Source: Nanobdellota archaeon (GTDB lineage: Archaea > Nanobdellota > Nanobdellia > Pacearchaeales > JAHJTO01). Taken from it: a stretch of 34,844 nucleotides of DNA. Below the pieces are notes generated by a model. That model was not told the origin of the DNA, searched no databases, and was given only the letters and a program-made list of their open reading frames with translations. Within the stretch, counting starts at the first letter, position 1. Each line of letters begins with the position of its first letter. Of the stretch, positions 1,635 through 34,440 are shown piece by piece. Position numbers and translations under genes: made by a program. The stretch lies in contig JAHJTO010000041.1 in the NCBI GenBank assembly GCA_018829845.1, positions 1-34,844 of the forward strand. Direction: 5' to 3'.

Positions 1635-1657
1635 TGAGAAGCATTTTGTGTTTCGGT

Positions 1658-1689
1658 CATGCCAAAAATCTGGAGGATTTTTCAGCATG
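1658..1689 (+). promoter_or_regulatory. Leader hairpin of the CATGCC/GCATG family: GGAGG in the loop, start codon of the cysteine desulfurase gene in the 3' arm
   Basis: CATGCCAAAAATC-TGGAG-GATTTTTCAGCATG. It forms 7 bp (A/T tract) plus 5 bp (CATGC:GCATG) with a 1x2 internal loop. The final ATG is nt 1687-1689. Confidence 0.6.
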
Positions 1690-2853
1690 AAAATCTACAT
1701 GGATCATTCGGCAACAACTCCTGTGAGAAAAGAAGTTGTGAAAGCGATGGAGCCACTTTTCCTCAGAAAATTCGGCAATGCCTCCTCCATTCATTCGTTT
1801 GGAAAAGAAGCCAGGGAAGAAATGGAAGAATCAAGAAAGAAAATTGCAAGAATAATAAATGCTGAGCCAAATGAAATAATATTCACATCTGGAGGAACCG
1901 AATCTGATAACCTTGCCTTAAAGGGGATAGCCTTTGCGAACAAAGAGAAAGGAAATCATATAATCGCATCAAAGATGGAGCATGATGCCATCTTGAACAC
2001 ATGCAAATATCTTGAAAAACAAGGATTCAAAATCACTTATTTGAATGTAAACTCTGAGGGAATTATCAATCTAAATGAATTAAAAAAATCAATCAATGAT
2101 AAAACTATCCTTGTGAGCATAATGCATGCAAACAATGAAATTGGAACAATCCAGCCAATAGAAGAAATAGGAAAAATTTGTTCTAATAAGGGGATTTATT
2201 TCCATACTGATGTTGTTCAAACATTCTGCAAGGAAAAAATAGACGTAAAAACCATGAATATCTCTTTGCTTTCAGCATCATCCCATAAAATATATGGTCC
2301 AAAGGGTGTTGGATTCATGTATGTTAAAAAAGGAACTAAAATAATTTCCCTTTTGCATGGGGGCGGACATGAATTTGGAATAAGATCTGGAACGGAAAAT
2401 ATTCCGGGAATTGTTGGATTTGCAAAAGCTGCAGAAATTGCAAACAAGGAAATGGCAAAGGAAAATGCTAGATTGAAAAAGTTGAGAGACAAAATAATAA
2501 AAGAACTTTTGAAAATAAAAGATTCCAGATTAAATGGTTCTATGAAAAATAGGCTGTCAAATAATATTAACATGTCCTTCAGAGCAGTTGAAGGAGAATC
2601 ATTGATTCTATCTCTTGATGCCGAAGGCATTGCAGCTTCAACAGGCTCCGCATGTTCTTCAAGATCGCTGGAGCCTTCCCATGTTTTGGTTTCACTTGGA
2701 TTAAAACCAATAGATGCTCACGGATCATTGAGATTGACTCTTGGAAAAGACAATAATGACAAAGATGTAAAAGAAGTTATAAATAAAGTTCCAAAGATAA
2801 TAAAAAGATTGAGAATGTTCAGTCCCAAATTAAATATTGAAGGAATTTGTTAA
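1687..2853 (+). CDS. iscS: Cysteine desulfurase (NifS/IscS class)
   Basis: MKIYMDHSATTP N-terminus, PLP-lysine motif SSHKIYGPKGVG, and active-site loop STGSACSS. Start moved to the Met at 1687 (the conserved N-terminus starts here and a GGAGG lies 10 nt upstream). Confidence 0.9.
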   Translation: MKIYMDHSATTPVRKEVVKAMEPLFLRKFGNASSIHSFGKEAREEMEESRKKIARIINAEPNEIIFTSGGTESDNLALKGIAFANKEKGNHIIASKMEHDAILNTCKYLEKQGFKITYLNVNSEGIINLNELKKSINDKTILVSIMHANNEIGTIQPIEEIGKICSNKGIYFHTDVVQTFCKEKIDVKTMNISLLSASSHKIYGPKGVGFMYVKKGTKIISLLHGGGHEFGIRSGTENIPGIVGFAKAAEIANKEMAKENARLKKLRDKIIKELLKIKDSRLNGSMKNRLSNNINMSFRAVEGESLILSLDAEGIAASTGSACSSRSLEPSHVLVSLGLKPIDAHGSLRLTLGKDNNDKDVKEVINKVPKIIKRLRMFSPKLNIEGIC

Positions 2854-2860
2854 GTATAAT

Positions 2861-3175
2861 ATGGCACAAATCAAAAAAACAAAAATGATTGGGAACATCG
2901 AACGTTCCCATCATGCCGGAAAGTCACACTTTCCAAGCATAATACAGCCAAAAGAAAGCATATCAGGGGATATGACAATTTCAGAAGTTGTCACACATTA
3001 TCCTGAGACAATGCCTGTTTTCATGCAACATGGCATGACCTGCTTTGGATGTCCCATGGCGCTGATGGAAACGGTGGCGCAGGGAGCAGAGGCCCATGGA
3101 ATGGATGCAGAAGATCTTGTTGAGGCATTGAACAAGGCTATAAAAAAGAAAAAGAAAATCAAAGTAATAAAATAA
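2861..3175 (+). CDS. DUF1858 / hybrid-cluster-protein-associated redox-disulfide-type small protein
   Basis: DMTISEVVTHYPETMPVFMQHGMTCFGCPMALMETVAQGAEAHGMDAEDLVEALNKAI is the typical CxxC DUF1858 pattern. The start is uncertain (2861 or a later Met). Confidence 0.7.
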   Translation: MAQIKKTKMIGNIERSHHAGKSHFPSIIQPKESISGDMTISEVVTHYPETMPVFMQHGMTCFGCPMALMETVAQGAEAHGMDAEDLVEALNKAIKKKKKIKVIK

Positions 3176-3176
3176 C

Positions 3177-4802
3177 ATGGCATTAGACTATACCAAAGAA
3201 GTAATGAAGCATTTCACACATCCCAAAAATTTGGGTGAGATGAAAGACGCAGATGGAATAGGGAAAGTTGGGAACATAACCTGCCTCGTTCCAGGACAAA
3301 AGATACATTCAAACCATTCTTTGATAGAGATAGAAAAATTGGATGTGGGGGATTCTGTTTTAAATCATGAAGGAAACCCTGATAAGGTCAGTAGTAATCA
3401 TTCAAGAGAACATAATGGAAAAGTCATAGAACTAAAAAATAGCCTCGGAAAGATAAAATTGACCCCTGAACATTTGATCCTTGCGATTAAAACTCCAAAA
3501 GGCCAAAAGTTCTTAAGGAATAAATGGAGAAGAACCATTGTTCCCTCATGGTATCATGCTGCAGATTTGAATAAAAGAGATATAGTCCTTTATCCAATTG
3601 TTAGAAAGGCCGAAGATATTGAAACAATCGATTTGAATATTCCAAAATTAAAGTGGGATTTTAGAAGTAAATCTATTCCAAAGAAAATACCTATTAACGG
3701 GGATTTTCTCAGATTAGCAGGATATTACTTATCAGAAGGCCATGCTTCATTAAGAATAACAAATGTCTGTTTGAACTTCTCTTTTCATATTGACCAGAAA
3801 GATTATGCGAATGACATTAAGAGCATAGCAAAAGAACTTTTTAACCTAGATGCAGTAATCAGAGAGAATATACCTCATAAGACCTTGGTAGTGTACTTGC
3901 ACAGCGCTCCTTTGACAAGATTCTTTAAGGATTTGTTTGAAAAAGGCGCAGAGAATAAGAGAATCCCCGAGTTTATGATGATTCTTCCTTCAGAAAAGCA
4001 AAAAGAACTTATTAAAGGGCTTTGGAGAGGTGATGGCTATGTGAACTTGAAAAGAGCCGGCCCCCGAGCAGGGTATGTTACGATTTCTTCCACCCTTATA
4101 CAACAGATAAAGACATTGCTGCTAAGGCAATGCATTGTTCCTTCAATGTATGAAGAGGCTGAACAAACAATAAGGGGAGTCAAGCATAGAAGATCATTTA
4201 GAATACATGTGGGCCAAAGAGAATCCTTAGTAAAATTATGTAAAATTCTTAATATAGATTATATCCCAAAATCTTATCCATCAATAGATTCATGGTTCAC
4301 TAATTATAATCTTTATACCCCTATAACCGGAATAAATAAAGTAGATTACATTGGAAAGGTCCATAATTTAGAAGTTGAAAACTCTCACTCTTTCACTTCA
4401 GAGGCATTTACTCTTCACAATTGTGGCGATATCATAATGATTTTCATAAAAATCGGAAAGAGAAAATCAGGCGAAGAATTCATCAAAGATATAAAATTCA
4501 AAACTTTAGGATGCGCTGCAGCAATAGCCACAACAAGCATGATGACTGTTCTTGCGAAGGGAAAAACCCTTTCTGAGGCAATGAAAATAACAAATTCAGA
4601 TGTAATAAAAGGACTTGGGGGACTTCCTAAAATAAAACACCATTGCTCCCTTCTTGCCGAAGAAGGCCTTGGAGAAGCACTCTATCATTATCTTAAAAGC
4701 CACAAAAAACAAATTCCAAAATCTCTTGAAGCCAAACACAAGAGGGCGGTGCTTTCTCAAAAAGCATTCCATGCGAAGCATGATCAAAGTCATAAATCAT
4801 AA
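3177..4802 (+). CDS. iscU: IscU/NifU-N-type Fe-S scaffold protein interrupted by an intein
   Basis: N-extein is ..GIGKVGNIT. C-extein is CGDIIMIFIKI..LGCAAAIATTSMM..HHCSLLAEEGL, which carries the three IscU cysteine motifs. 380 aa of intein lie in between. Confidence 0.85.
   Translation: MALDYTKEVMKHFTHPKNLGEMKDADGIGKVGNITCLVPGQKIHSNHSLIEIEKLDVGDSVLNHEGNPDKVSSNHSREHNGKVIELKNSLGKIKLTPEHLILAIKTPKGQKFLRNKWRRTIVPSWYHAADLNKRDIVLYPIVRKAEDIETIDLNIPKLKWDFRSKSIPKKIPINGDFLRLAGYYLSEGHASLRITNVCLNFSFHIDQKDYANDIKSIAKELFNLDAVIRENIPHKTLVVYLHSAPLTRFFKDLFEKGAENKRIPEFMMILPSEKQKELIKGLWRGDGYVNLKRAGPRAGYVTISSTLIQQIKTLLLRQCIVPSMYEEAEQTIRGVKHRRSFRIHVGQRESLVKLCKILNIDYIPKSYPSIDSWFTNYNLYTPITGINKVDYIGKVHNLEVENSHSFTSEAFTLHNCGDIIMIFIKIGKRKSGEEFIKDIKFKTLGCAAAIATTSMMTVLAKGKTLSEAMKITNSDVIKGLGGLPKIKHHCSLLAEEGLGEALYHYLKSHKKQIPKSLEAKHKRAVLSQKAFHAKHDQSHKS
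3282..4421 (+). mobile_element. Intein with LAGLIDADG homing-endonuclease domain (1140 nt, 380 aa)
   Basis: Starts with Cys (CLVPGQKI) and has block B TxxH (LTPEHLIL). The two LAGLIDADG motifs are LAGYYLSEGHA and LIKGLWRGDGYV. Block F/G is VHNLEVENSHSF..TLHN, followed by a +1 Cys. Confidence 0.85.
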
Positions 4803-12577: not shown

Positions 12578-14074
12578 TCATTTAACATTGGAGGCTTTTA
12601 CTTCTGCAATTCTTGCCCTTATCCTTTTCACAAAATCAGGATCATCAAAAGGGCTTGGGAAGCTTGAAAGGCCCTGAGTTTTTTTGAATGTATCAAATAA
12701 TGTGAAGCAGGATTTTGCGCTTTCATTCTCAACAAGCTGCCTTACAACATCTTCTTCATAATTATCCTCTGAAATCCCTTCTTCTTTAAGTTTGAGTTTT
12801 TTCTCTGATTTTTCCTTCTTTTCCTTGGCAGATTTTTCTTTCTCCTCTTTTTCTTTTTCTAGCCTTGACTGGCCCACTATCGACTTTTTAATATCTGTCC
12901 ATAATTCCTTGAGAAAATACTCTTCCTCTTCTTTCTTCTCTTCCTTTGGTTCTAGGAAATAATCTATGTCCTTCTGTATCTGTTCAAGGCTTTTGTCTGT
13001 AAGATGTCCGGCAACATTCAAGGTGCTTTCAATGGCGCCGTCTTCCCTTATCTTTTCTAGAAGAAGCAGTTCATCTTCATTGAGAACGTAGGCCTTGAAT
13101 CCGATTTCAATTCTTCCTGCATGCGGATGTTGGGCAGTAGGATATGTTCTAAACTTGAAATCAACCGTGAGGACCTCATAAAAATCCCTAATATCATCAA
13201 GTTTTTTAATGAACCCTTGAGGCAGATCTCCGGCAAATACTGCTCCCTTGGTGTCTGCCTTCTTCTTTGCAAAAAGATTAAGTTCTAAGATCATGGAAGT
13301 GAATATTGATACTATTGATGCTTCTTTGGAACCCTTCATCCTAAGCTGTTCTGCTGCCTGAAGATACGGTTTTACCCAGCTTGAATATAATTTTACAGTG
13401 TCTATCTGGCTTCTCAGCTGGCTTTTTTCAATTTCATATCGCTTTCTCAATTCGATCTCGCTGAATTCTATCCAAGTGAAAAATTCTCCAAGCCTTGAAA
13501 TCAATGTTCTTCTTACGATTTCAGTAAGATCCATTTTCTCTGCTTCTTCTACAGATTCTGCGGCAAAAAATGCGGGCCTTAAAGTTGTGAATCCATAATT
13601 TTGAGCCATGTAATTTATGCTTCCCGACTGCCTTTGCATATCTACCGACATAAGCCAAAGTTCTTTCAGAGCCAACATTCCTTCCTTTTTAGTTTTAGGA
13701 TCTTTCAGTTTGTCATAAACTTTTAATCTTATGTCAAAATTTCTCAGATCATAGATAATATTTATCAGGCTTTTTATGACATTGTTCACAGTTCCTAAAA
13801 TTTTCATTCCCTCTTCCTGCATCTTCTGGGCAGTCATGCTGAGGTTCCCGAAATATGAAGATCCCGGGGATGTAACAAATGTGTCTGCTATTTTTTCAAC
13901 GTTTTCCGGTCCAGAATAGTATCCATTCATGAAATCGATTATCCAATAATAAAAATTCTCAAGAGTGTTCATGTTTGTATCAAAATAAATCTTGTTTTCC
14001 CATATTGGGCCTTTCTTCCCTCCCTCGCTATATCTAGGATTTATCTTAGGAATTAAATCATCTATTTCTCCCAT
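12578..14074 (-). CDS. Hypothetical protein (498 aa) with a Lys/Glu-rich segment near the C-terminus
   Basis: Long uninterrupted ORF. GAGGGAG lies 8-9 nt upstream of the ATG. No domain recognised. Confidence 0.6.
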   Translation of the reverse strand: MGEIDDLIPKINPRYSEGGKKGPIWENKIYFDTNMNTLENFYYWIIDFMNGYYSGPENVEKIADTFVTSPGSSYFGNLSMTAQKMQEEGMKILGTVNNVIKSLINIIYDLRNFDIRLKVYDKLKDPKTKKEGMLALKELWLMSVDMQRQSGSINYMAQNYGFTTLRPAFFAAESVEEAEKMDLTEIVRRTLISRLGEFFTWIEFSEIELRKRYEIEKSQLRSQIDTVKLYSSWVKPYLQAAEQLRMKGSKEASIVSIFTSMILELNLFAKKKADTKGAVFAGDLPQGFIKKLDDIRDFYEVLTVDFKFRTYPTAQHPHAGRIEIGFKAYVLNEDELLLLEKIREDGAIESTLNVAGHLTDKSLEQIQKDIDYFLEPKEEKKEEEEYFLKELWTDIKKSIVGQSRLEKEKEEKEKSAKEKKEKSEKKLKLKEEGISEDNYEEDVVRQLVENESAKSCFTLFDTFKKTQGLSSFPSPFDDPDFVKRIRARIAEVKASNVK

Positions 14075-15345: not shown

Positions 15346-15387
15346 CATGCCGAAAAAACGGCAGAGGAGGGGGTTTTTTCTAGCATG
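15346..15387 (+). promoter_or_regulatory. Leader hairpin of the CATGCC/GCATG family at the gltX start
   Basis: CATGCC-GAAAAAAC-GGCAGAGGAGGGG-GTTTTTTC-TA-GCATG forms 8 bp plus 5 bp. GAGGAGG is in the 13-nt loop. The final ATG is nt 15385-15387. Confidence 0.6.
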
Positions 15388-17382
15388 AAAAAGAAGATTG
15401 AAATAGAAGAGGCTAAGGAAGAGGATCTCGCCATGAATACCCACATTCCTTTCGAAATCCCTGCCGAACCTGGGAAAGAAAAAGTCAAGAAAACCAGGAA
15501 GAAATCAGCAAGCATTAAAAAACCACGTAAGAAAACTCTAAAGAAGCCTGCAAAGAAAAAGCCAAAATCAGCGGTAAAGGAAAGGCAGGAGACAATAATA
15601 GAAGCAGTCGCTATCAAAAAGGTCAAGGAAATTGCCACAAAGCCATTAAAAATTGAGAAAAAACCTGAAGTTAAGAAGGATATGGCAGTAGAAAAGGAAA
15701 CGCAAAGAAATGCCACCTTTGAAGAAAAGATGTTCGCCTATGCTCTTGAAAATGCTGTTGAACACGAAGGAAAATGCATGCCCAATGCTATTCTTGGAAA
15801 ATTGTTCCAAGAAGGATTGAAGAAAGAGAAGATAAAAGATGTTATGCCCAAAATCCAAAATGCGGTTTCTAAAGTAAATTCTATGAATTTTAATGATCAA
15901 AAAATTGAATTTGAAAAACAGAAAGATATTGTTAAAGTTTTCAAACATGAAACAAGGCAAGAACTGCCGGAACTTCCAAATGCTGTTCAAGGAAAGGTTG
16001 TTGTAAGGTCGGCACCATTCCCTTCGGGAGCATTGCATATAGGAAATGCCATCCCAATCATAATAAATGAAGAATATGCCAAGAGATACAATGGAAAGCA
16101 CATTCTTGTCATAGATGATACAATAGGCAGTGAGGAAAAACAGATAGTTCCAGCAGCATATAAAATGATAGAGGACAGCATGAAGTGGCTTGGAGTCAAA
16201 TATGATCCAACAGTCATATACAAATCCGACAGATTGAATATTTATTACAAATATGCTGAGATGCTCATTAACAAAGAAGCAGCATATGTATGTTTCTGCA
16301 ATGTTGAAAAATTGAGAGACAATAGAGAAAAGGGATTGGCATGTACATGCAGGAGTAAAGATTATCCGACAAACATAAAGGATTGGAAATGGATGTTTTC
16401 AGCCGAGGCTAAACAGGGAATGGCAATACTGAGATTGAAGACAGATATGAAGCATCCAAATCCGGCATTTAGGGATAGAGTATTATTCAGAATTTCTGAC
16501 AGAGAACACCCCCGAATAAAGGGGTTGAAGGTGTGGCCTATGCTTGAATTTTCATGGGCTGTTGATGATCACTTGCTTGGAATAACCCATATAATCCGGG
16601 GAAACCAACTAAGGATGGAGACTGAGATGGAAGAGTTCATATGGAAAATACTTGATTGGCCGCCCCTAACAACAGTCTACACCCCAAGAATATCCTTTGA
16701 AGGAGTTTCATTCAGCAAGAGCAAATCCCAGGATGAAATAAGAAACGGACTGTATCTTGACTGGAGCGATCCAAGAACATGGAGCCTTCAAAGTTTTGAT
16801 AAAAGAGGAATACTTCCACAGGCAATAAGGAATCTTATAGTGCAATTTGGAATGTCTGAGAAAGAGCATTTGTCAATCCCTCTTGACATGCTTTATGCCG
16901 AAAATAGAAAGCTCATTGAAAATTCAAACAGGTATTTCTTTGTTTCAAAGCCAAAGAAGATAAGTGTCATATGGGCTCCAAAGAAAAAGGTTTTCTTGCC
17001 GCTTCATGCCCAACATCCAGAAAAAGGAAAAAGAGAAATAAATGCCGGCACTAGCTTTTACATATCTGAAGAAGACCATAGGAAAATTGTTGAAGGTAAA
17101 ACCTACAGACTCATGAATCTTTTCAATTTCGAAAAGAAGAAAGGAAAATTTGTTTTTGTTTCAGAAGAGCACAATAATCAACTTTGTGCTCCAATGTTCC
17201 ATTGGCTTCCTGCCTCAAAGGAAACGCAGAAGGGAAAGGTCTTCATGCCGGATGGAACATGGAATGAAGGATATGTTGAAGCCGGAGCTTCAAAACTTCC
17301 CGAGGGATCAATTGTACAATTTGAAAGATTCGGATTCTGCAAGAAACAAAAGGGAAATGAATTCTGGTTTGCGCACAAATAG
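15385..17382 (+). CDS. gltX: Glutamyl-tRNA synthetase, archaeal/eukaryal type, with a ~100-aa Lys-rich N-terminal extension
   Basis: Collinear with archaeal GluRS: FAYALENAVEHEGK.., VVRSAPFPSGALHIGNAIPIIINEEYAKRYNG (a HIGH-class motif, here HIGN), WPMLEFSWAVDDHLLGITHIIRG, and C-terminal FERFGFC..FWFAHK. Confidence 0.9.
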   Translation: MKKKIEIEEAKEEDLAMNTHIPFEIPAEPGKEKVKKTRKKSASIKKPRKKTLKKPAKKKPKSAVKERQETIIEAVAIKKVKEIATKPLKIEKKPEVKKDMAVEKETQRNATFEEKMFAYALENAVEHEGKCMPNAILGKLFQEGLKKEKIKDVMPKIQNAVSKVNSMNFNDQKIEFEKQKDIVKVFKHETRQELPELPNAVQGKVVVRSAPFPSGALHIGNAIPIIINEEYAKRYNGKHILVIDDTIGSEEKQIVPAAYKMIEDSMKWLGVKYDPTVIYKSDRLNIYYKYAEMLINKEAAYVCFCNVEKLRDNREKGLACTCRSKDYPTNIKDWKWMFSAEAKQGMAILRLKTDMKHPNPAFRDRVLFRISDREHPRIKGLKVWPMLEFSWAVDDHLLGITHIIRGNQLRMETEMEEFIWKILDWPPLTTVYTPRISFEGVSFSKSKSQDEIRNGLYLDWSDPRTWSLQSFDKRGILPQAIRNLIVQFGMSEKEHLSIPLDMLYAENRKLIENSNRYFFVSKPKKISVIWAPKKKVFLPLHAQHPEKGKREINAGTSFYISEEDHRKIVEGKTYRLMNLFNFEKKKGKFVFVSEEHNNQLCAPMFHWLPASKETQKGKVFMPDGTWNEGYVEAGASKLPEGSIVQFERFGFCKKQKGNEFWFAHK

Positions 17383-17488: not shown

Positions 17489-17923
17489 ATGGGAAAGATA
17501 TTGAACGTCAAATATCAATTCGACGATGGGCTCGTGAGTAAAGTTTTTGATGGCATGAATGATTTTGATAAAATACATGCTGCGGCAATGTGTATGAAGG
17601 ACTATTCTATAAAAGCGATGGCGCATGCTGCAGGAGTCAGCGAATACAGCATATCTAATAAAAGGAAGAGATTATTCCTTAAGATGGTGCATGAGATAAA
17701 GGAGCATTACAAAAGCGGAGTAAGAGTTCCAGAGGATAGGATAATGGCATTGTTCAACAGATGCTACGTTGAAGGAAAAATATCTCCTTCAAATTCTTCT
17801 GAAGAAATAAAAGATGCTTATGGCAAATCCTACAAACCATGGAAAGCCAATACTAATATGTCAATGGTGGGTGGGGAAAGAAAATGCAACTCAAATCTTC
17901 TTGACCATGTATGGCTCAACTAA
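17489..17923 (+). CDS. Hypothetical protein with a possible HTH
   Basis: SIKAMAHAAGVSEYSISNKRKR is HTH-like. The 3' end overlaps the convergent elp3 by 33 nt. Confidence 0.4.
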   Translation: MGKILNVKYQFDDGLVSKVFDGMNDFDKIHAAAMCMKDYSIKAMAHAAGVSEYSISNKRKRLFLKMVHEIKEHYKSGVRVPEDRIMALFNRCYVEGKISPSNSSEEIKDAYGKSYKPWKANTNMSMVGGERKCNSNLLDHVWLN

Positions 17924-19279
17924 TTTATAACCTAGTTTAGAAGAATAATATTCTCTAACCCCGATTCCAGAAATAACTTTTATTTCAGAGCATTTTTCTT
18001 TCTTTGCTATTTTCTCAGCTTCTTTCATAAGTTTTTTCCCAAGACCAATATGTTGAGAATGTTTTTCCTTTCCTTTCTCGCTCAACTTCAGCTCTTTCCC
18101 GTAGACATGGAGCTCTCTTACAAACATGAATTTGCTTTTTCCGCTACCAACAATCCTCAGCCTGCATAATCCAAACAAAACATCATTCTTATTTACGAAT
18201 TCTAAAAATATCTCTTTGCTTCCGGATGCCTTGTAGTCTATTCTTTTAAGTTTAATGCGGTTATCAATATCCTTCCTAGAATCTCTTCTGACAAATCCGA
18301 TCTCTCGGCACCTTATGCAATTACATTTCTTTTTTCTTCTTTCCAATTCTTCCAAGAGCACTTTTCTTAAATCAATCCTCTTTGTTCCGGCAACAAGAAA
18401 TGCTGGGGGGATTTCCCTCATTATCCTCATTATCCTGCAATATTTTGGAACCATAAGCTTCAGATTCAGAAGAAGTTGTATCAATTCCTCCTCTTTGTAA
18501 GGCTCATAGCCTCCCCGATAATATATTTTCTCAAGCTTCGCTCCCTTCAAAACCTGGGTGGGATAGATCTTTATTTGATCGGGACGGAAGTCCTCATCTG
18601 AGAAAACTTTTTGAAAAAGTTTTAGATCTTTCTTCAATGAGGATCCTGGCAGACCGGGCATGAGATGAAAGCCTACCTTAAAGCCATTATTTTTCAGTTT
18701 TTTTGTTGCGTCAACTACATCTTGAACACTATGTCTTCTTTTTATGAGGCCATAGATTTTATCATCAAGAACTTGAACTCCGAGTTCTACCCTTGTGGCT
18801 CCAAATTCCAAAATTCTTTTTATCTCCTCATCACCGCATACGTCTGGGCGGGTTTCAATGCATAGGGCAACGCATCGGTTCTTTGCTTTCTCATTTATCT
18901 TTTTGGCATGAGCCAAATCTTTTGACTTTTTGCCATTCAAAGCATCATAGCAATCTTTGACAAATTTATATTGAAAATCCACTGGATAATCCAGAAATGT
19001 TCCGCCCATAATTATCAATTCCACTTTGTCTGTGGGATGACCCATGATTTTGAATGCATTAATCCTCGCTTTTACTTGTTCAAATGCATCATAATTTAAC
19101 TTAGAAGCTCGGAGAACTGCAGGACTTTCAGGAGTGTATGATTGTGGGGCATTCAAAGAAGGACAATACAAACATGCTCCCTTTCTGCATGCCCTTGGGG
19201 GAAGCATGACTGCTATTGGACTGACTCCTGAAATCGTTCTTGTTGGTTTCCTAATAACCATGATAATTGAATAAAACAC
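17891..19279 (-). CDS. elp3: Elp3-type radical SAM / GNAT acetyltransferase (tRNA wobble-uridine modification)
   Basis: KPTRTISGVSPIAVM, a Cx4Cx2C cluster motif (CRKGACLYC), VELIIMGGTF, RVELGVQ, and a C-terminal GNAT (HSQHIGLGKKLMKEAEKIA). The true start may be the Met at 19261. Confidence 0.85.
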   Translation of the reverse strand: MFYSIIMVIRKPTRTISGVSPIAVMLPPRACRKGACLYCPSLNAPQSYTPESPAVLRASKLNYDAFEQVKARINAFKIMGHPTDKVELIIMGGTFLDYPVDFQYKFVKDCYDALNGKKSKDLAHAKKINEKAKNRCVALCIETRPDVCGDEEIKRILEFGATRVELGVQVLDDKIYGLIKRRHSVQDVVDATKKLKNNGFKVGFHLMPGLPGSSLKKDLKLFQKVFSDEDFRPDQIKIYPTQVLKGAKLEKIYYRGGYEPYKEEELIQLLLNLKLMVPKYCRIMRIMREIPPAFLVAGTKRIDLRKVLLEELERRKKKCNCIRCREIGFVRRDSRKDIDNRIKLKRIDYKASGSKEIFLEFVNKNDVLFGLCRLRIVGSGKSKFMFVRELHVYGKELKLSEKGKEKHSQHIGLGKKLMKEAEKIAKKEKCSEIKVISGIGVREYYSSKLGYKLVEPYMVKKI

Positions 19280-20868: not shown

Positions 20869-21346
20869 TTTTTCCCCTATTCATGCCGGCCTTTATCCCC
20901 ATGATTTGTATTCTTGCAACATCATATTTCCTTGCAATATCTTCAGTGGTTTTGCCTTTGGAGAGATCATTTCTAATTTTTTCTTTCTCTTTATCACTAA
21001 GTTCTCGCTTGTTATTGTAGGTCCCCATAGTGATGTGGGCCTTTATGGCTGAGATCTCCTGCAGCTTTGCCTTTGGAATAAGCTTTTTGATTGCCTTTGG
21101 AAGATATCCTTGCTTAAGCAAATGAAAAATATCTTCATGAGTATAACCATTGTGCTTATGTGCGTAGTCTTTTCCATTTCCCGCCTTTGGAACATATGGC
21201 TGTGGATTTGGATCCACCCCTATGAGCTTTTCAAGTTTATTCAACTTCCCTTCAATGCTCTCTTCCATAGCCCGATTGGAACTTACATAGCTGTTAAATT
21301 CTGATCTAAGGCTTTTGACATATTGGTATAATTTTTTATAGTTCAT
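20858..21346 (-). CDS. Hypothetical protein with two related HTH-like segments
   Basis: KLQEISAIKAHITMG and RIQIMGIKAGMNRG are internal repeats; also KGKTTEDIARKYDV. 4-nt overlap with the upstream 851-aa gene. Confidence 0.5.
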   Translation of the reverse strand: MNYKKLYQYVKSLRSEFNSYVSSNRAMEESIEGKLNKLEKLIGVDPNPQPYVPKAGNGKDYAHKHNGYTHEDIFHLLKQGYLPKAIKKLIPKAKLQEISAIKAHITMGTYNNKRELSDKEKEKIRNDLSKGKTTEDIARKYDVARIQIMGIKAGMNRGKNVQ

Positions 21347-23898
21347 TCTTTCCTCCCAAGCTTAAAGCTCATGAGTCTCATGGGCGTTTCTCTGCTAACA
21401 TATGGCTTGTTCAATTTTGTTTGTATTGAATATTTGTTTTCATCGGCAAGATTGCTTACTATCTTTGTTAATATCTCTCCTTGATCTTCTGTACCGTACT
21501 GTTCTAGGAATCCATTGGAATTTTCTTCCGCAAGAGACATTCCGCCATTTCTAACAATTCCCTGGGCTCTTGGAGATTCATCAAGAGTAACAAAAAGAAC
21601 TGCATCATTTGCAATCTGGTTGTTTTTGAATAATGATCTTACAGTTTCTAAATTGTTTTTGCTGAGATAGCCATTGTAATCAAGATTTATGAAATCAAAT
21701 TTAAGATTTTTGTAGGCAGTACAATTGAGCGCATTATCGATTTGTCCGGAATAAAGATTAAGCCCGTTGAAAATTTCTCCGCCCTTTATTTTCTGATTTG
21801 AGGTGATAATACTTTTCATGGCATTATATGCTCTTGAATCTTTTTCAGCTATTAGGCTCTTCTTTGGATCTATCTTGAGTAATTGGGATAGGAAAATGTA
21901 GCTTCCAAAATGTGGTCCCTCTAGACCCAGATAATTCAATTTTTCTGGCCGTGGCAGACTATCTATTGCTTCTCCAAGCATCTTTTCCCTCATTTCATCC
22001 TTTGGATAATCTTTGAAGTCATTCATTTTCTTGTTTTTTATGCTTTCAACAGTATTGTAGCTTCTCTTTATTTCTGAAGAAGTGATTATTCCGAGCTCCT
22101 TCAAATCCCTTCCCACTGTGTAGATTTCCATTTTCAATCTCTTTGCTATGTCCACTCCGCTAAGTCCTCCAAATGCAAGCTCCTCTTCCAAGCTCCTTCT
22201 TACTTCTTTTCCTTTCTGGCTTCTCATCATGCTTTTGAAGAATCCATTGAAGGTCTTCCAGTAGTTCTTCCATGAATCCCCTATGTTCTTGCTACTCCAT
22301 GATCTTGCTGTTGGAACAGTTCCATGCTTATGGTAATGTGCCTTGAGATACTCAACACCCAAAGAGACAATCTCCTTTTTGGACAGATTACTAAATAAGT
22401 TGTTCTCCTGAAGATTCTCAGCGTCAGATCTGGAAAAAGTTATTCCCCTTAATTTGGCTAAGTAGTCTAGACCCTCCTGGGGAAGATAGACGCGTTTTCT
22501 TTTTCCCATTGGCTCTGTAATTATCATGTCCCCCAAAGACTGATCTACATTCTTGGAGTGGATGAATGTACACAGAGCCACCTTGTCCATTCCAAGAAGG
22601 GCTCCTGCTTCCTTCATAGTATATCTCTTTCTCTTGACTTCTTCAGAGGGTTTGTCTTCAGGAGTTGTATTTTGATCATTTGATTTCTGTTTTATGGTCT
22701 TTACACAACCCTTAAGATAATTGACTGCTTCTTCAGATATGAGCGGGGCCCCATCTTTCCATATCAGGAGTTTCTTAAAATTTTCATCATTGGATTCATG
22801 GACCCTTCTCCATATAGTAGAATAGTGTGTACCCAAAAGTTTTGCAGTTTCTTTGACACTGTACTCTTTCTTCCCAATTGGCTCTTTCTTTACAATTGGC
22901 CCCGACTCAATCTTCTCTTGAGATGTAATTAAAGGAGAATCATATGATTCCTGTGGAATATTGACAGATTGCAAAACTTCCTCAGGAGTTTCAGCATTCA
23001 TTTCAGCATAGGCAAGATATATTCTTGGTTCGAGATGAATATCCGATTTTCTAATTGATTCTTCAAGGTTGCTCTTTAACCTTGCAACGGTTTCCCCATT
23101 GAATGTGGCTTTTATGGAATATTTCATAAGAGCATTTTCCAATTGAGTTGCCTCAAAACCCTCCAGAGATTGATTTAAGATTTTTTGCATGGATCCATTT
23201 TCCATAGAGCAAGAATTTAGTGGGAAGATAACATCGATTTTATTTTCTGAGCCGTTGGAAACTTCATTTATTAAAATTGGGAATGATAAAGGATATTTTG
23301 TCCTATCTGAAAATCCTTTTGATTTTTGATAAGCTTCTGCTATCTCTGTCCTGAGCTTGATTTCTGTTTCTTTTATTGATTCGTCCAGTGCAGCATTTCT
23401 CTTTCTTTCTTTTCTTATTGCTTTTGATTTATATCCTTCTAGAATTTCCTTCTTTTTTTCAACTTTCTCCCAATTAACAGTATCGCCTTCATTGATGGAG
23501 GCATAGTCTTTAAACCATTTGTCAAAACATGAAGAAAGTGCAAATGACTTGGCCTCAAATGCTCCATTTACTGCCTTAAGATAGGTCTTAGAAGTCTCAT
23601 TCTTGTCTTTTGATAACATCAATTCTGCATCCATGGTAGTGACTATTCCAGTCAATCTTCCCTCAAGCCCGGATATGCATTCCTTGTCATGTTTGGAAAG
23701 AAGTTTCTCCTTCACAGAATCAAGTTCTGAGTTTATTTTTTCCATGTAGGCCTTTTTGGAATTTTCAACAAGTTCTCCAAGAGCTTTTACGTCCCCCTCA
23801 TATTTTTTATCAAGGGTTGCCTTTTCTTTCTCAAACTCTTCAATCTGCTTCTTGCTCTCTTCCCATACCTGCCTTGTTTTTGTTTCTAGTTCTTCCAT
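21343..23898 (-). CDS. Large multi-domain protein: N-terminal coiled-coil, at least three HTH modules, and a C-terminal Rossmann methyltransferase-like region
   Basis: HTH modules: YSVKETAKLLGTHYSTIWRRVHES, YTMKEAGALLGMDKVALCTFIHS and SGVDIAKRLKMEIYTVGRDLKELGI. The C-terminus has YLGLEGPHFG, LIAEKD, FDFINLDYNGY and AVLFVTLDE spaced like MTase motifs I, II, IV and V. Start set at the second Met (23898), which sits in a leader hairpin with AGGAG. Confidence 0.6.
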   Translation of the reverse strand: MEELETKTRQVWEESKKQIEEFEKEKATLDKKYEGDVKALGELVENSKKAYMEKINSELDSVKEKLLSKHDKECISGLEGRLTGIVTTMDAELMLSKDKNETSKTYLKAVNGAFEAKSFALSSCFDKWFKDYASINEGDTVNWEKVEKKKEILEGYKSKAIRKERKRNAALDESIKETEIKLRTEIAEAYQKSKGFSDRTKYPLSFPILINEVSNGSENKIDVIFPLNSCSMENGSMQKILNQSLEGFEATQLENALMKYSIKATFNGETVARLKSNLEESIRKSDIHLEPRIYLAYAEMNAETPEEVLQSVNIPQESYDSPLITSQEKIESGPIVKKEPIGKKEYSVKETAKLLGTHYSTIWRRVHESNDENFKKLLIWKDGAPLISEEAVNYLKGCVKTIKQKSNDQNTTPEDKPSEEVKRKRYTMKEAGALLGMDKVALCTFIHSKNVDQSLGDMIITEPMGKRKRVYLPQEGLDYLAKLRGITFSRSDAENLQENNLFSNLSKKEIVSLGVEYLKAHYHKHGTVPTARSWSSKNIGDSWKNYWKTFNGFFKSMMRSQKGKEVRRSLEEELAFGGLSGVDIAKRLKMEIYTVGRDLKELGIITSSEIKRSYNTVESIKNKKMNDFKDYPKDEMREKMLGEAIDSLPRPEKLNYLGLEGPHFGSYIFLSQLLKIDPKKSLIAEKDSRAYNAMKSIITSNQKIKGGEIFNGLNLYSGQIDNALNCTAYKNLKFDFINLDYNGYLSKNNLETVRSLFKNNQIANDAVLFVTLDESPRAQGIVRNGGMSLAEENSNGFLEQYGTEDQGEILTKIVSNLADENKYSIQTKLNKPYVSRETPMRLMSFKLGRKE

Positions 23899-23958
23899 GC
23901 TTAGAAATTCTCCTGCCAGAATTTCTGGCATGCAAAAAATCTTTGATTTTTTATCATG
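23896..23958 (-). promoter_or_regulatory. Two tandem family hairpins forming the leader of the 851-aa gene
   Basis: Sense strand: CATGAT-AAAAAATC-AAA-GATTTTTT-GCATG, overlapping CATGCC-AGAAATTC-TGGCAGGA-GAATTTCT-AA-GCATG. The final ATG is 23898-23896. Confidence 0.6.
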
Positions 23959-32018: not shown

Positions 32019-33056
32019 ATGGAAATGGCAAGACATTCCCCTGGATACTGGGCTGGAGAAAACATAGAGAAGGAATACTATAAAAAGAAAGAGGAAAAGG
32101 GAAGAATCCCCCGGGTAAGAGAATGGCTCATGGGAGTTCGTGCAATAAATAATGGAAAATATCTTGATGGAATAAATAATTACAAAGCATTTCTTAAACA
32201 TCTGAATGAAAGGACAGACTATCTTTGCATTGATCCGATATTCCCAAAAGAAGCATTCGAAGCGGCATATTGTGAATGTAAGGAGGAATTGGGCTGGGTG
32301 AAACCTTTGAGAAAAGAATTTGAGTACAGATATCCTGAAGTTATGAAAGAGATAAGGAGGGGAGGGTTTCTAAAGGAAGTGAGAAGTTACAAACAATTTA
32401 TCGAGCATATGGGTGAATCTGCAAATCATGCGCCAAATTATTGGACGGGCCATCCCCAAAGAATAAGAGAATCTTACTATGCGGATAAAAAAAAGTATGG
32501 ATTTGTTACACAAAAAGGGTTTGCAAAAAGGCATCCAGGAGAATGGGATGCAATATTTAGCAGGAGATATAATAAAAATATTCACAACTGGAACCAATTC
32601 AAGCATTCTTTGGGAGAAAGAGTTTGGAAAAGAGCACCAAATGGATCAATTACACTTGAGAGATGCACAAAAAAATATTATGAATGTAAAAAGAAGATCA
32701 AAAAGAAAGAGGGAAGAGCACCATTTTACAAAGAATTTGAAGGGATGTGTGGGGGATCAGCCAAATGGATAGAAAAAAATATTGGATGGAATAATTTTCT
32801 GAGATCACAGGGAGAAAAAATAAATAAGGAATGCAATAGGGATGATGAAAAACTAAAAAAAGGAAAAGATGTATGGACAAAAGAAGATTTCATAGACGCA
32901 TACACTTTTCTGGAGAGGGAAAGGGGGAGAAGACCCTCAAGGAATTATTTTATTAATTTTTATGGTCCAGAATCACTTAAACAGATTAAAAAGGGAAAAA
33001 TTGAGGGAATAAAAAACTGGAATGATCTGGAAAGAATTGTTAATGGAATGAATTAA
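32019..33056 (+). CDS. Protein built from about five tandem ~60-aa repeats resembling homing-endonuclease-associated repeats
   Basis: The repeat ends recur: ..NNYKAFLKHLNE, ..SYKQFIEHMGE, ..NWNQFKHSLGE, ..GWNNFLRSQGE, ..NWNDLERIVNG. Each is preceded by W/Y..E....Y....K...GR.P. Confidence 0.6.
   Translation: MEMARHSPGYWAGENIEKEYYKKKEEKGRIPRVREWLMGVRAINNGKYLDGINNYKAFLKHLNERTDYLCIDPIFPKEAFEAAYCECKEELGWVKPLRKEFEYRYPEVMKEIRRGGFLKEVRSYKQFIEHMGESANHAPNYWTGHPQRIRESYYADKKKYGFVTQKGFAKRHPGEWDAIFSRRYNKNIHNWNQFKHSLGERVWKRAPNGSITLERCTKKYYECKKKIKKKEGRAPFYKEFEGMCGGSAKWIEKNIGWNNFLRSQGEKINKECNRDDEKLKKGKDVWTKEDFIDAYTFLERERGRRPSRNYFINFYGPESLKQIKKGKIEGIKNWNDLERIVNGMN
32853..32926 (+). repeat. 74-nt tract identical to 34234-34307
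   Basis: CTAAAAAAAGGAAAAGATGTATGGACAAAAGAAGATTTCATAGACGCATACACTTTTCTGGAGAGGGAAAGGGG is present in both paralogs, while flanking sequence is clearly diverged. Confidence 0.85.
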
Positions 33057-33069
33057 ATGGAAATTTAGC

Positions 33070-34440
33070 ATGGTAGATCTTGAAAAGCATATTGATGAAA
33101 TAGTAAGATTGTATGTAGTTAAAAAGAAGGGGTGCGCACTTATAGGAAAAGGGTATGGGGCGAAGAGGTATGCTATAGGGAAGATTCTTAGAAATAGGGG
33201 AATTGAATTGAAAAAGAGGGGAAAGTATTCTGAAATGAATCGCTTAACTGACTGGAAAAAAGAGTATGAACTGCATCCTGAATGGAAGGGGAAGAATTCA
33301 TCGCAGATAGCATATGAGACTGAATCAGGACTACTTAATTTTTATAGGGCATTTAGAAAATGGGTTCAAAAAAACATTAAAGATGAAAATCTGAGGAAAA
33401 GATCTTCTTGTGAGGTTTTAGGATTGAGGGAGAATTTGACTCAGGAAAGAATTGACCAGCGTTTTTTTGATCTTTATAAGAGTCTTGACAGGATTCCAAC
33501 AGTAAGGGAAGTGGGGGCTGCCTGTGGGGGTGTGATGACGGCAATATTCAGGGGAGAATATTTCAAGAGCATAACAACCTATCTAGGCTATCTCAGGCAC
33601 CATGGACTTTATGATCCATCTGAGGAAAAGGATCTTACCCGGGAGGAAATGAAGGCTGAATTTTATAAATGCAAGAAAAAACTGGGGAGGGATCCCCTCA
33701 GAAAGGAGATATTCCACAGCTGTCCTGGATTTGAAAGGGCGCTTAAGAATGAAAGATATTCTAGAGGAGTAAATAACTATCGGAAGTTTATGATAAGTAT
33801 TGGTGAAAAAGCAAATCATGTTGAGAGGAACTACTGGAAGGGACATCCTAGGAGAATAATCAGGGCATACTGGACAGAGAAAAAATTGAATAAGAATTTG
33901 AAGAGAAAAGATTTCGCAGCCAGATGTTCCGGAGCATGGGATGTCATACAAAACGGAGAATTCAAAAAAGGAATTACAACATGGAATGGATTCAAAAGAT
34001 ATCTTGGGGAGGAGATAAAATATCCCCATGATCGAACATGGTCTCCTGAAAAGGTACTGAAGGCATACTATGATCAGAAGAAAGAGTTAGGAAGAAATCC
34101 AACCTGTAAAGAATTTATAGCCAGAAACGGAGGAGCAATAAACACTATAAGGAGAAGAACCTATGATCCCTCTATCTCAACATATAATGGATTCCTAATC
34201 TCCCTTGGGGAAAAGGTGATGCGAAAGATATCTCTAAAAAAAGGAAAAGATGTATGGACAAAAGAAGATTTCATAGACGCATACACTTTTCTGGAGAGGG
34301 AAAGGGGAAGAAAACCTCCAAGAGATATGTTCATGAATTATTATGGTCAAGAACCTTTCAAGCAGATGAAAAAAAGAAAAATTGATGGAGTAAGAAACTG
34401 GGGTGATCTGGAAAGAATTGTTAATAGCACTCAAAGATAA
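33070..34440 (+). CDS. Paralog of the preceding gene: N-terminal HTH-like module plus about six of the same ~60-aa repeats
   Basis: Repeat ends: TTYLGYLRHHGL, NNYRKFMISIGE, TTWNGFKRYLGE, STYNGFLISLGE, RNWGDLERIVNS. The N-terminus GCALIGKGYGAKRYAIGKILRNRGIELKKRG resembles the modules of ORF 19314-20012. Confidence 0.6.
   Translation: MVDLEKHIDEIVRLYVVKKKGCALIGKGYGAKRYAIGKILRNRGIELKKRGKYSEMNRLTDWKKEYELHPEWKGKNSSQIAYETESGLLNFYRAFRKWVQKNIKDENLRKRSSCEVLGLRENLTQERIDQRFFDLYKSLDRIPTVREVGAACGGVMTAIFRGEYFKSITTYLGYLRHHGLYDPSEEKDLTREEMKAEFYKCKKKLGRDPLRKEIFHSCPGFERALKNERYSRGVNNYRKFMISIGEKANHVERNYWKGHPRRIIRAYWTEKKLNKNLKRKDFAARCSGAWDVIQNGEFKKGITTWNGFKRYLGEEIKYPHDRTWSPEKVLKAYYDQKKELGRNPTCKEFIARNGGAINTIRRRTYDPSISTYNGFLISLGEKVMRKISLKKGKDVWTKEDFIDAYTFLERERGRKPPRDMFMNYYGQEPFKQMKKRKIDGVRNWGDLERIVNSTQR
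34234..34307 (+). repeat. 74-nt tract identical to 32853-32926
   Basis: See the partner copy. A second identical 22-mer, TGATCTGGAAAGAATTGTTAAT, occurs at 33023-33044 and 34404-34425. Confidence 0.85.

Follow-up and report, generated by a model that had tools for sequence, protein, structure and literature searches.

Among described inteins, that of mycobacterial SufB (Mtu SufB) occupies a component of the iron-sulfur (Fe-S) cluster biogenesis scaffold. It is 359 amino acids (aa) long and has an intact endonuclease domain (PMC8891592), its splicing has been shown experimentally, and it figures as a sensor of oxidative and nitrosative stress in the title of Topilina et al. 2015, as cited in PMC4760082. 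The intein of Pyrococcus abyssi MoaA (Pab MoaA) interrupts an oxygen-sensitive, Fe-S-related protein and begins with Cys1, which pairs with a Cys of the N-extein in a disulfide that controls splicing and holds the precursor in a redox-trapped state (PMC10663303). Here we describe an intein of 380 aa in the gene for the Fe-S scaffold protein IscU (3177-4802, forward strand) on contig JAHJTO010000041.1 of a Nanobdellota archaeon (assembly GCA_018829845.1). The contig was analyzed over its whole length of 34,844 nucleotides (nt), referred to below as the 34.8-kb window.

The IscU intein (3282-4421, forward strand) is of about the same size as that of Mtu SufB and shares with it the class-1 arrangement of Cys1, Cys+1, a penultimate His, a terminal Asn, and a block B His, as well as a host dedicated to Fe-S cluster biogenesis. 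The two differ in the identity of that host, which is SufB of the SUF system in one case and IscU/NifU_N in the other, and in their carriers, Actinobacteria as opposed to DPANN and other archaea together with a contig labeled as belonging to the Candidate Phyla Radiation (CPR). Whereas splicing has been observed for the SufB intein, that of the IscU intein is predicted from its sequence, and the IscU intein stands apart in that its +1 residue is itself a cluster-ligand Cys.

The element is of an ordinary type, and it is its host and its site, at the first cluster-ligand Cys of IscU, that appear to be undescribed. A literature search, which did not extend to InBase, returned no paper on an intein in IscU or NifU, and neither these two proteins nor ferredoxin oxidoreductase is mentioned in the main text of a 2015/2016 intein survey (PMC4760082). 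An initial annotation of this contig, made from the sequence alone, had suggested that IscU is not a catalogued intein host. This holds insofar as no publication was found, but the allele itself is abundant in public sequence data, where it is simply not labeled as an intein: the corresponding records are called "hypothetical" or "iron-sulfur cluster assembly scaffold protein," and one carries the erroneous name "2-oxoglutarate ferredoxin oxidoreductase subunit beta." IscU, entered at its first cluster-ligand Cys, thus appears to add a previously unreported host and site to the catalogue of inteins, and it would be, after mycobacterial SufB, the second Fe-S biogenesis scaffold that requires splicing before it can function.

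The intein interrupts IscU at the CGD cysteine

The 541-aa open reading frame (ORF) at 3177-4802 encodes an IscU/NifU_N scaffold protein that is divided by the intein into two exteins. The N-extein (3177-3281, forward strand) comprises 35 aa, from MALDY to GIGKVGNIT, and covers NifU_N profile positions 2 to about 33 once spliced. The C-extein (4422-4802, forward strand) comprises 126 aa and the stop codon; it begins with CGDIIMIF and contains, in addition to the +1 Cys of the CGD motif, the LGC and HHC motifs. Conservation counts here and below derive from a 42-sequence precursor alignment and a set of 179 homologous inteins. On the N-terminal flank, G-4 is kept in 178 and N-3 in 176 of the 179 sequences, and on the C-terminal flank, +1 C, +2 G, and +3 D are each kept in all of them.

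Pfam NifU_N matches the precursor as two separate stretches (E = 8.7e-34). Removal of the intein in silico yields a 161-aa product with a single contiguous match (residues 5-130 against profile positions 2-125, E = 3.6e-39), and when this product is aligned to solved IscU structures from archaea and bacteria (7c8m, 4eb5, and 2z7e), no gap opens at the junction; in the case of 7c8m (E = 1e-38), GKVGNPVCGDLMEIF is matched to GKVGNITCGDIIMIF. The predicted spliced IscU has the junction peptide VGNITCGDIIMIFIK and contains the cluster-ligand motifs C36-G-D38, LGC66, and H109-C110. Against the NCBIfam models TIGR03419 (NifU_clost) and TIGR01999 (IscU) it scores 152 and 111 bits, respectively, both under the equivalog cut-offs.

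In IscU, cluster-ligand roles fall to the three ligand cysteines, the Asp of the CGD motif, and the His that precedes the third Cys. Since the spliced product aligns unbroken to IscU, the residue that directly follows the intein is the Cys of the CGD motif, which we take to be the first of the three ligand cysteines, equivalent to Cys37 of Escherichia coli IscU. The initial annotation had placed the +1 nucleophile at this same Cys, and the alignment of the spliced product bears this out, with continuity across the junction seen both in the single NifU_N match and in the comparison with solved structures. Translation of 3282-4421 and its flanks likewise reproduces the coordinates and every motif that the annotation had quoted.

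Anatomy and modeled fold of the intein

The segment at 3282-4421, which runs from CLVPGQ to TLHN, is a class-1 intein consisting of a Hint domain with an inserted double-motif LAGLIDADG homing endonuclease, all of whose elements lie on the forward strand. Block A (CLVPGQKIHSNHS, 3282-3320) provides the Cys1 nucleophile (nt 3282-3284), and block B (LGKIKLTPEHLILA, 3444-3485) contains the TxxH element T61-P-E-H64 (LTPEH); Cys1, T61, and H64 are each present in 179/179 inteins. The first LAGLIDADG motif (LRLAGYYLSEG, 3708-3740) carries the putative catalytic Glu152 (G147 in 179/179, E152 and G153 in 177/179 each), and the second (LIKGLWRGDGY, 4008-4040) the putative catalytic Asp251 (W248 and G252 in 179/179, G250 in 178/179, D251 in 175/179). 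Block F (GKVHNLEVENSHSF, recognizable by VHNLEVENSHSF; 4353-4394) contributes His369, found in 163/179 copies, together with N362 (177/179) and E364 (176/179). Block G (EAFTLHN, 4401-4421) ends in the penultimate His379 and the terminal Asn380 (HN at 4416-4421), both invariant among the 179 copies, and is directly followed by the +1 Cys (4422-4424).

Pfam LAGLIDADG_3 matches two repeats in the precursor (E = 5.7e-12) and has E = 2.3e-12 for the intein, and TIGR01443 (intein_Cterm), at 18.2 bits, exceeds its cut-off of 15.6. Partial matches extend to the intein portions of the NCBIfam exception models for Tes, Pol II, ribonucleotide reductase (RNR), RecA, and GyrA, and there is no exception model for an intein-containing IscU among the NCBIfam matches. 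The assignment is weakened by the scores for Pfam Intein_splicing (25.8 bits) and Hint_2 (19.2 bits), both of which fall under their gathering cut-offs.

An AlphaFold2 (AF2) model of the intein, calculated from 22 sequences, has a pLDDT of 90.9 and a pTM of 0.90. Its top PDB match in Foldseek is the TliVMA intein (7qsu; E = 3.7e-23, TM scores of 0.72/0.75), followed by the full-length, endonuclease-containing inteins PI-SceI, PhoVMA, PI-PkoII, and PI-PfuI, and the central region matches I-DmoI (TMt of about 0.7), I-SceI, and I-Tsp061I as well as DNA-bound PI-SceI. The VMA inteins (TliVMA, 7qsu/7qss; PhoVMA, 7qst; PI-SceI, 1vde), PI-PkoII, and PI-PfuI have the same Hint fold with an inserted double LAGLIDADG domain (E = 3.7e-23 to 4e-16, TM scores of 0.57-0.75), but they are only 13-18% identical to the IscU intein in sequence and reside in V-ATPase, DNA polymerase, and RNR hosts. 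By sequence, the best PDB match is PI-PkoII, at E = 1.5e-4. With its 380 aa, the IscU intein is shorter than PI-SceI (chains of at least 454 aa) and PI-PkoII (537 aa) and close in size to the PhoVMA and truncated TliVMA chains (361 and 366 residues). The predicted structure thus supports a Hint fold despite the subthreshold Pfam scores. Taken with the motifs, the NCBIfam matches, and the restoration of the host protein, it upholds the proposal of a full-length LAGLIDADG intein inside IscU, and the 380-aa segment matches the intein splicing blocks (intein_Cterm, TxxH, and the conserved residues).

Predicted splicing and its bearing on IscU maturation

We consider it very likely that the element is a splicing-competent class-1 intein with a probably active LAGLIDADG endonuclease, a selfish mobile element residing in iscU of what is probably a DPANN archaeon. 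This interpretation builds on four observations: the motif anatomy, the fold, an IscU alignment made whole by excision, and the finding that a syntenic locus lacks the intein (see below). Translation of iscU would yield the 541-aa precursor, in which an N-S acyl shift at Cys1, aided by Thr61 and His64 of block B, would be followed by attack of the +1 Cys on the thioester (trans-thioesterification). Cyclization of Asn380, aided by His379 and His369, and an S-N shift that establishes a normal peptide bond would complete the reaction, the products being a 161-aa IscU with GNIT-CGD restored and a free 380-aa endonuclease.

Before splicing, the first ligand Cys would not be available in the native fold of IscU. 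Maturation of the scaffold would therefore depend on splicing, and it is a reasonable inference that only the spliced protein is functional. The same dependence holds for any intein placed at a catalytic, ligand, or otherwise functional residue.

Two points speak against splicing competence as outlined above. Splicing, endonuclease activity, and the target sequence are all predictions, and the position usually held by the block F Asp, a residue that assists splicing (PMC10663303), is occupied by Asn362 in 177 of the 179 IscU inteins. The Asn could be taken as the mark of a dead insertion that no longer splices and has inactivated iscU in the window genome, as could the stops or frameshifts found inside the intein at a few related loci (L033, L046, L048, and L052). 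We regard such a pseudogene as highly improbable, however. In the window the reading frame runs through without interruption and all junction residues are intact, purifying selection is evident on exteins and intein across the 179 copies, and the block F Asn, being conserved across the family, is no lesion of this particular copy. Furthermore, a second, intein-free iscU is found neither in the 34.8-kb window nor in the flanks (+/-4 kb) of 76 loci. The extein is well conserved, and the gene lies within an intact IscS-DUF1858-IscU-Lgt cluster.

The chemistry of the junctions also raises the question of whether the intein acts as a domesticated conditional-splicing switch, gating IscU maturation through a response of splicing to redox state, to metal, or to a persulfide on Cys1/Cys+1. 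The Fe-S machinery of CPR bacteria and of DPANN and some methanogen-related archaea may consist of only the IscS-IscU pair, and under such a switch these minimal systems would begin cluster assembly only in permissive (reducing) conditions; mobility of the element would be compatible with this role. Both junction nucleophiles are Cys, the +1 Cys being a cluster ligand, and 116 of the 179 copies have a third Cys four residues ahead of the junction, at intein position 377. Redox genes surround the cluster: in the window these are DUF1858 and a thioredoxin-reductase-like gene, and at the occupied locus L076 (described below) they are glutaredoxin and ferredoxin. There are precedents in the redox-trapped Pab MoaA (PMC10663303) and the oxidative-stress-sensitive Mtu SufB (PMC8891592, and the reference title in PMC4760082). 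In addition, the whole intein is as conserved as its host (0.706 in the endonuclease region compared with 0.704 in the extein core, over the 179 copies), and no mini-intein or degenerate form occupies the site among the sequences listed, although the searches favored full-length copies and absence is therefore not established. Uniformly strong conservation and a lack of mini-inteins would also be expected from a domesticated function, and to this extent they count against a selfish element.

Even so, we think a conditional switch unlikely, and the redox coupling hinted at in the initial annotation finds no specific support here. The closest relatives keep the same locus without the intein (see below), which is thus dispensable. 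Cys is not among the four commonest residues at any N-extein position from -8 to -1 in the 179 sequences, so that the C(-3)-C1 trap of the MoaA type, which needs an N-extein Cys, is absent. The window copy has Thr at position 377 instead of Cys, and ongoing homing is the simpler explanation for the conserved catalytic residues of the endonuclease. Slightly less probable still, in our estimate, is that the intein serves as a post-translational gate in which Cys1 and Cys+1, joined in most copies by Cys377, act as sensors of oxidation, metal, or persulfide. If true, such a gate would let the scaffold mature only when cluster assembly is safe, and it would account for retention of the full-length element and for its host-like conservation across two domains. 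The simple IscS-IscU system offers a direct test ground for redox- or metal-conditional splicing.

Distribution of the IscU intein

A protein search with the precursor returned at least 461 proteins at E <= 1e-3, of which 120 were examined as listed (90%-identity clusters). All 120 of these matches, drawn from assemblies of NCBI, JGI, ENA, and Logan, share one architecture and one insertion site (GNxx/C...HN/CGD, with slashes marking the intein boundaries). When each GTDB species was represented by one genome, a scan with a single intein protein as query gave no confirmed relative; a 22-sequence alignment, by contrast, did find relatives, at 73 loci, about 67 of which are iscU genes interrupted here by the intein. 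Length is nearly constant, 175 of the 179 inteins having 378-382 aa, and the mean pairwise identity is 55%.

This recurrence bears on the possibility that the apparent insertion merely reflects a chimeric assembly or misjoined contig, which we judge to be the least probable of the explanations weighed here. The architecture and site are the same in 120/120 of the matches listed, and in about 67 GTDB species genomes, a complete one (CP058998) among them; the reading frame is continuous; and the GC content of the intein (0.350) and its GC content at third codon positions (GC3, 0.308) equal those of the flanking genes. Independent assemblies thus effectively refute a chimera. The equal GC and GC3 values also rule out a compositionally foreign intein, and they indicate that there was no recent arrival from a compositionally different donor.

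By record title, DPANN carriers comprise Nanoarchaeota, Pacearchaeota, Woesearchaeota, Iainarchaeota/Diapherotrites, Micrarchaeota (among them the complete genome CP058998), and Aenigmatarchaeota, and close homologs of the window IscU bear organism names from Pacearchaeota (DPANN) only. Other archaeal carriers, again by record title, are Methanomassiliicoccales and other Thermoplasmata, Methanomethylicota, and two Asgard metagenome-assembled genomes (MAGs). Several further intein-bearing MAGs are labeled Patescibacteria or Parcubacteria. On the contig of KKT26549.1 (L077), genes for ClpB and a CHASE2-cyclase stand beside IscS-IscU. These neighbors are of bacterial type, so that some of the labels probably reflect a genuine occurrence in bacteria, and at least one CPR-labeled contig with the IscU intein probably is truly bacterial. 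The same neighbors counter the notion that all bacterial labels are errors.

In the annotation of CPR and DPANN genomes, iscU with this intein should be spliced in silico before Fe-S pathway completeness is scored. The IscU intein protein of the Parcubacteria MAG just mentioned (P0090/KKT26549.1, L077:3340-4866) bears the NCBI name "2-oxoglutarate ferredoxin oxidoreductase subunit beta," which probably represents an annotation carried over through the intein, and in a Portnoybacteria MAG (P0243) the gene call, of 128 aa, begins within the intein. At L041 and L067, in addition to L033, L046, L048, and L052, the intein or the sequence that follows it is broken by in-frame stops or frameshifts, which may reflect decaying copies or assembly errors.

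Empty alleles and probable mobility

When the spliced extein is used as a query, the four most similar IscU proteins (80-82% identity) are free of the intein, and the nearest intein-bearing IscU (P0002) is 77.5% identical to that of the window in its extein and 84% in its intein. One empty allele (P0123) lies on a contig (L074) with the same gene order as the window and the occupied locus L076, in which DUF1858 is followed by IscU, LGT, DUF7343/MarR, and U32 and then by HMA/DsbD. The DNA of L074 reads straight through the insertion site (GTTGGAAACATGACC/TGTGGAGAC), with exactly 1140 nt absent; the sequence of the empty-site duplex is GGGAAGGTTGGAAACATGACC/TGTGGAGACATAATGTGGTTC. Empty and occupied alleles, for which the initial annotation had suggested looking in related genomes, thus both exist at this site.

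In our preferred reading as a homing element, the endonuclease would recognize the uninterrupted iscU site, with a target consensus of about GGnaAaGTnGGnAAtccngtn/TGcGGnGAtnTnATGtgg, and cut intein-less alleles, the repair of which would copy the intein in. In favor of this reading are the retained acidic residues Glu152 and Asp251, an endonuclease region conserved to the same degree as the extein core, the spread of one allele over several archaeal phyla and at least one CPR-labeled contig, and the presence of related inteins in other host proteins (see below). The iscU target consensus was reconstructed from 65 sites (GGnaAaGTnGGnAAtccngtn/TGcGGnGAtnTnATGtggnTt), and one real empty site is available in addition.

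The host genes group the occupied L076 with the empty L074, apart from the window. U32 is 87% identical in aa sequence between L076 and L074 compared with 78-79% to the window, and the corresponding extein values are 89% and 78-80%. At third codon positions, window and L076 are more alike in the intein (identity of 0.666) than in five flanking genes (0.523; Fisher p = 6e-7), and at 4-fold sites the difference is marginal (0.577 in the intein and 0.465 in the flanks, p = 0.05). On an approximate extein tree built from 119 alleles with the intein and 120 without it, the distribution of the intein takes about 32 parsimony changes compared with about 80 when labels are shuffled, and intein and extein identities are loosely correlated (Mantel r of 0.32). 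Overall, these data fit vertical descent mixed with repeated gain and/or loss, without telling gain and loss apart in individual cases. Such a mixture is normal for a homing element whose endonuclease works.

Several considerations weigh against reading horizontal gain into this comparison. U32 taken alone has a 4-fold identity of 0.598, as high as that of the intein, and the argument from synonymous sites is weak, with divergence near saturation. The parsimony count comes from a short, noisy extein tree and two differently sampled sets of alleles, and the pattern would be accounted for equally well by horizontal gain or by a loss of the intein on the way to L074. Near-constant length, a kept endonuclease, occurrence in several archaeal phyla and apparently in CPR, and empty alleles nearby make this a good natural case in which to study homing and cross-domain spread in ultra-small, uncultivated organisms.

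Relatives in other host proteins

A search of 1.84 billion cluster representatives yielded 160 relatives of the intein at E <= 1e-30 and 2236 at E <= 1e-10. Hosts other than IscU, as sampled from these, include the beta subunit of 2-oxoacid:ferredoxin oxidoreductase, a thioredoxin-reductase-like flavoprotein, UDP-glucose dehydrogenase, GcpE/IspG, a methyltransferase, and a Laminin_G_3 protein. In the thioredoxin-reductase-like case (P0266, a Pyr_redox_2 protein), the related intein lies at about residue 135.

Among the loci fetched, the closest relatives in other hosts are two oxidoreductase-beta inteins that are 37-38% identical to the IscU intein, one at L071:3941-5833 (record title Collierbacteria, CPR) and the other at L072:3-1625 (titled "uncultured Pseudomonadales," probably a mislabel). 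Two proteins from the representative library, P0256 and P0273, have the same architecture and are 40% and 36% identical, respectively, over the full intein length. We found no published description of an intein in 2-oxoacid:ferredoxin oxidoreductase beta in the literature.

The CPR oxidoreductase-beta intein is of the same length class as the IscU intein and shares its Cys1 and HN junctions as well as the CGD at +1 to +3 (TWCPG/CGDFG compared with GNxx/CGD), but it differs in its host, which has TPP_enzyme_C and PFO_beta_C domains, and in its N-extein flank. The common CGD context suggests an ectopic move between similar target sequences, that is, a past jump between iscU and oxidoreductase-beta sites that share TGyGGnGAy.

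Gene neighborhood of iscU

In the window, iscU is part of a tight cluster of genes on the same strand that encode a thioredoxin-reductase-like protein, a cysteine desulfurase, a DUF1858 protein, IscU, Lgt, a DUF7343/MarR-like regulator, and a U32 peptidase. The cysteine desulfurase (IscS/NifS-like, 1648-2853, forward strand; Pfam Aminotran_5, E = 3.7e-89) lies upstream of iscU in the same orientation, as it does at the intein-bearing iscU loci L076, L077, and L078. Cysteine desulfurase is the sulfur donor partner of IscU. The interval between the two genes is occupied by a small DUF1858 protein (2972-3175, forward strand; Pfam DUF1858, E = 3.4e-21) that is conserved in the syntenic L074 and L076 and whose stop codon lies 2 nt before the iscU start. 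Its ORF was called mechanically from a TTG at 2837 (2837-3175), and the ATG at 2972 precedes the domain. The cluster in L076 additionally includes glutaredoxin, a thioredoxin-reductase-like gene, and ferredoxin.

The Lgt encoded directly downstream of iscU in the window is of bacterial type. Gene content that points to archaea comprises an Elp3-like protein (17891-19279, reverse strand; Radical_SAM, Radical_SAM_C, and GNAT domains), a class Ic glutamyl-tRNA synthetase (GluRS) of 665 aa (15385-17382), and the DUF7343 regulator. Scans of the 34.8-kb window for tRNA genes and Rfam families found nothing, and the ORFs at 21343-23931 (862 aa) and 12578-14074 (498 aa), both on the reverse strand, have no Pfam match at E = 1e-3. 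Toward the end of the window, two adjacent ORFs on the forward strand (32019-33056, 345 aa, and 33070-34440, 456 aa) match Pfam HNH_repeat ("homing endonuclease associated repeat"), one of them weakly (E = 5.9e-4) and the other above the cut-off (E = 3.5e-9).

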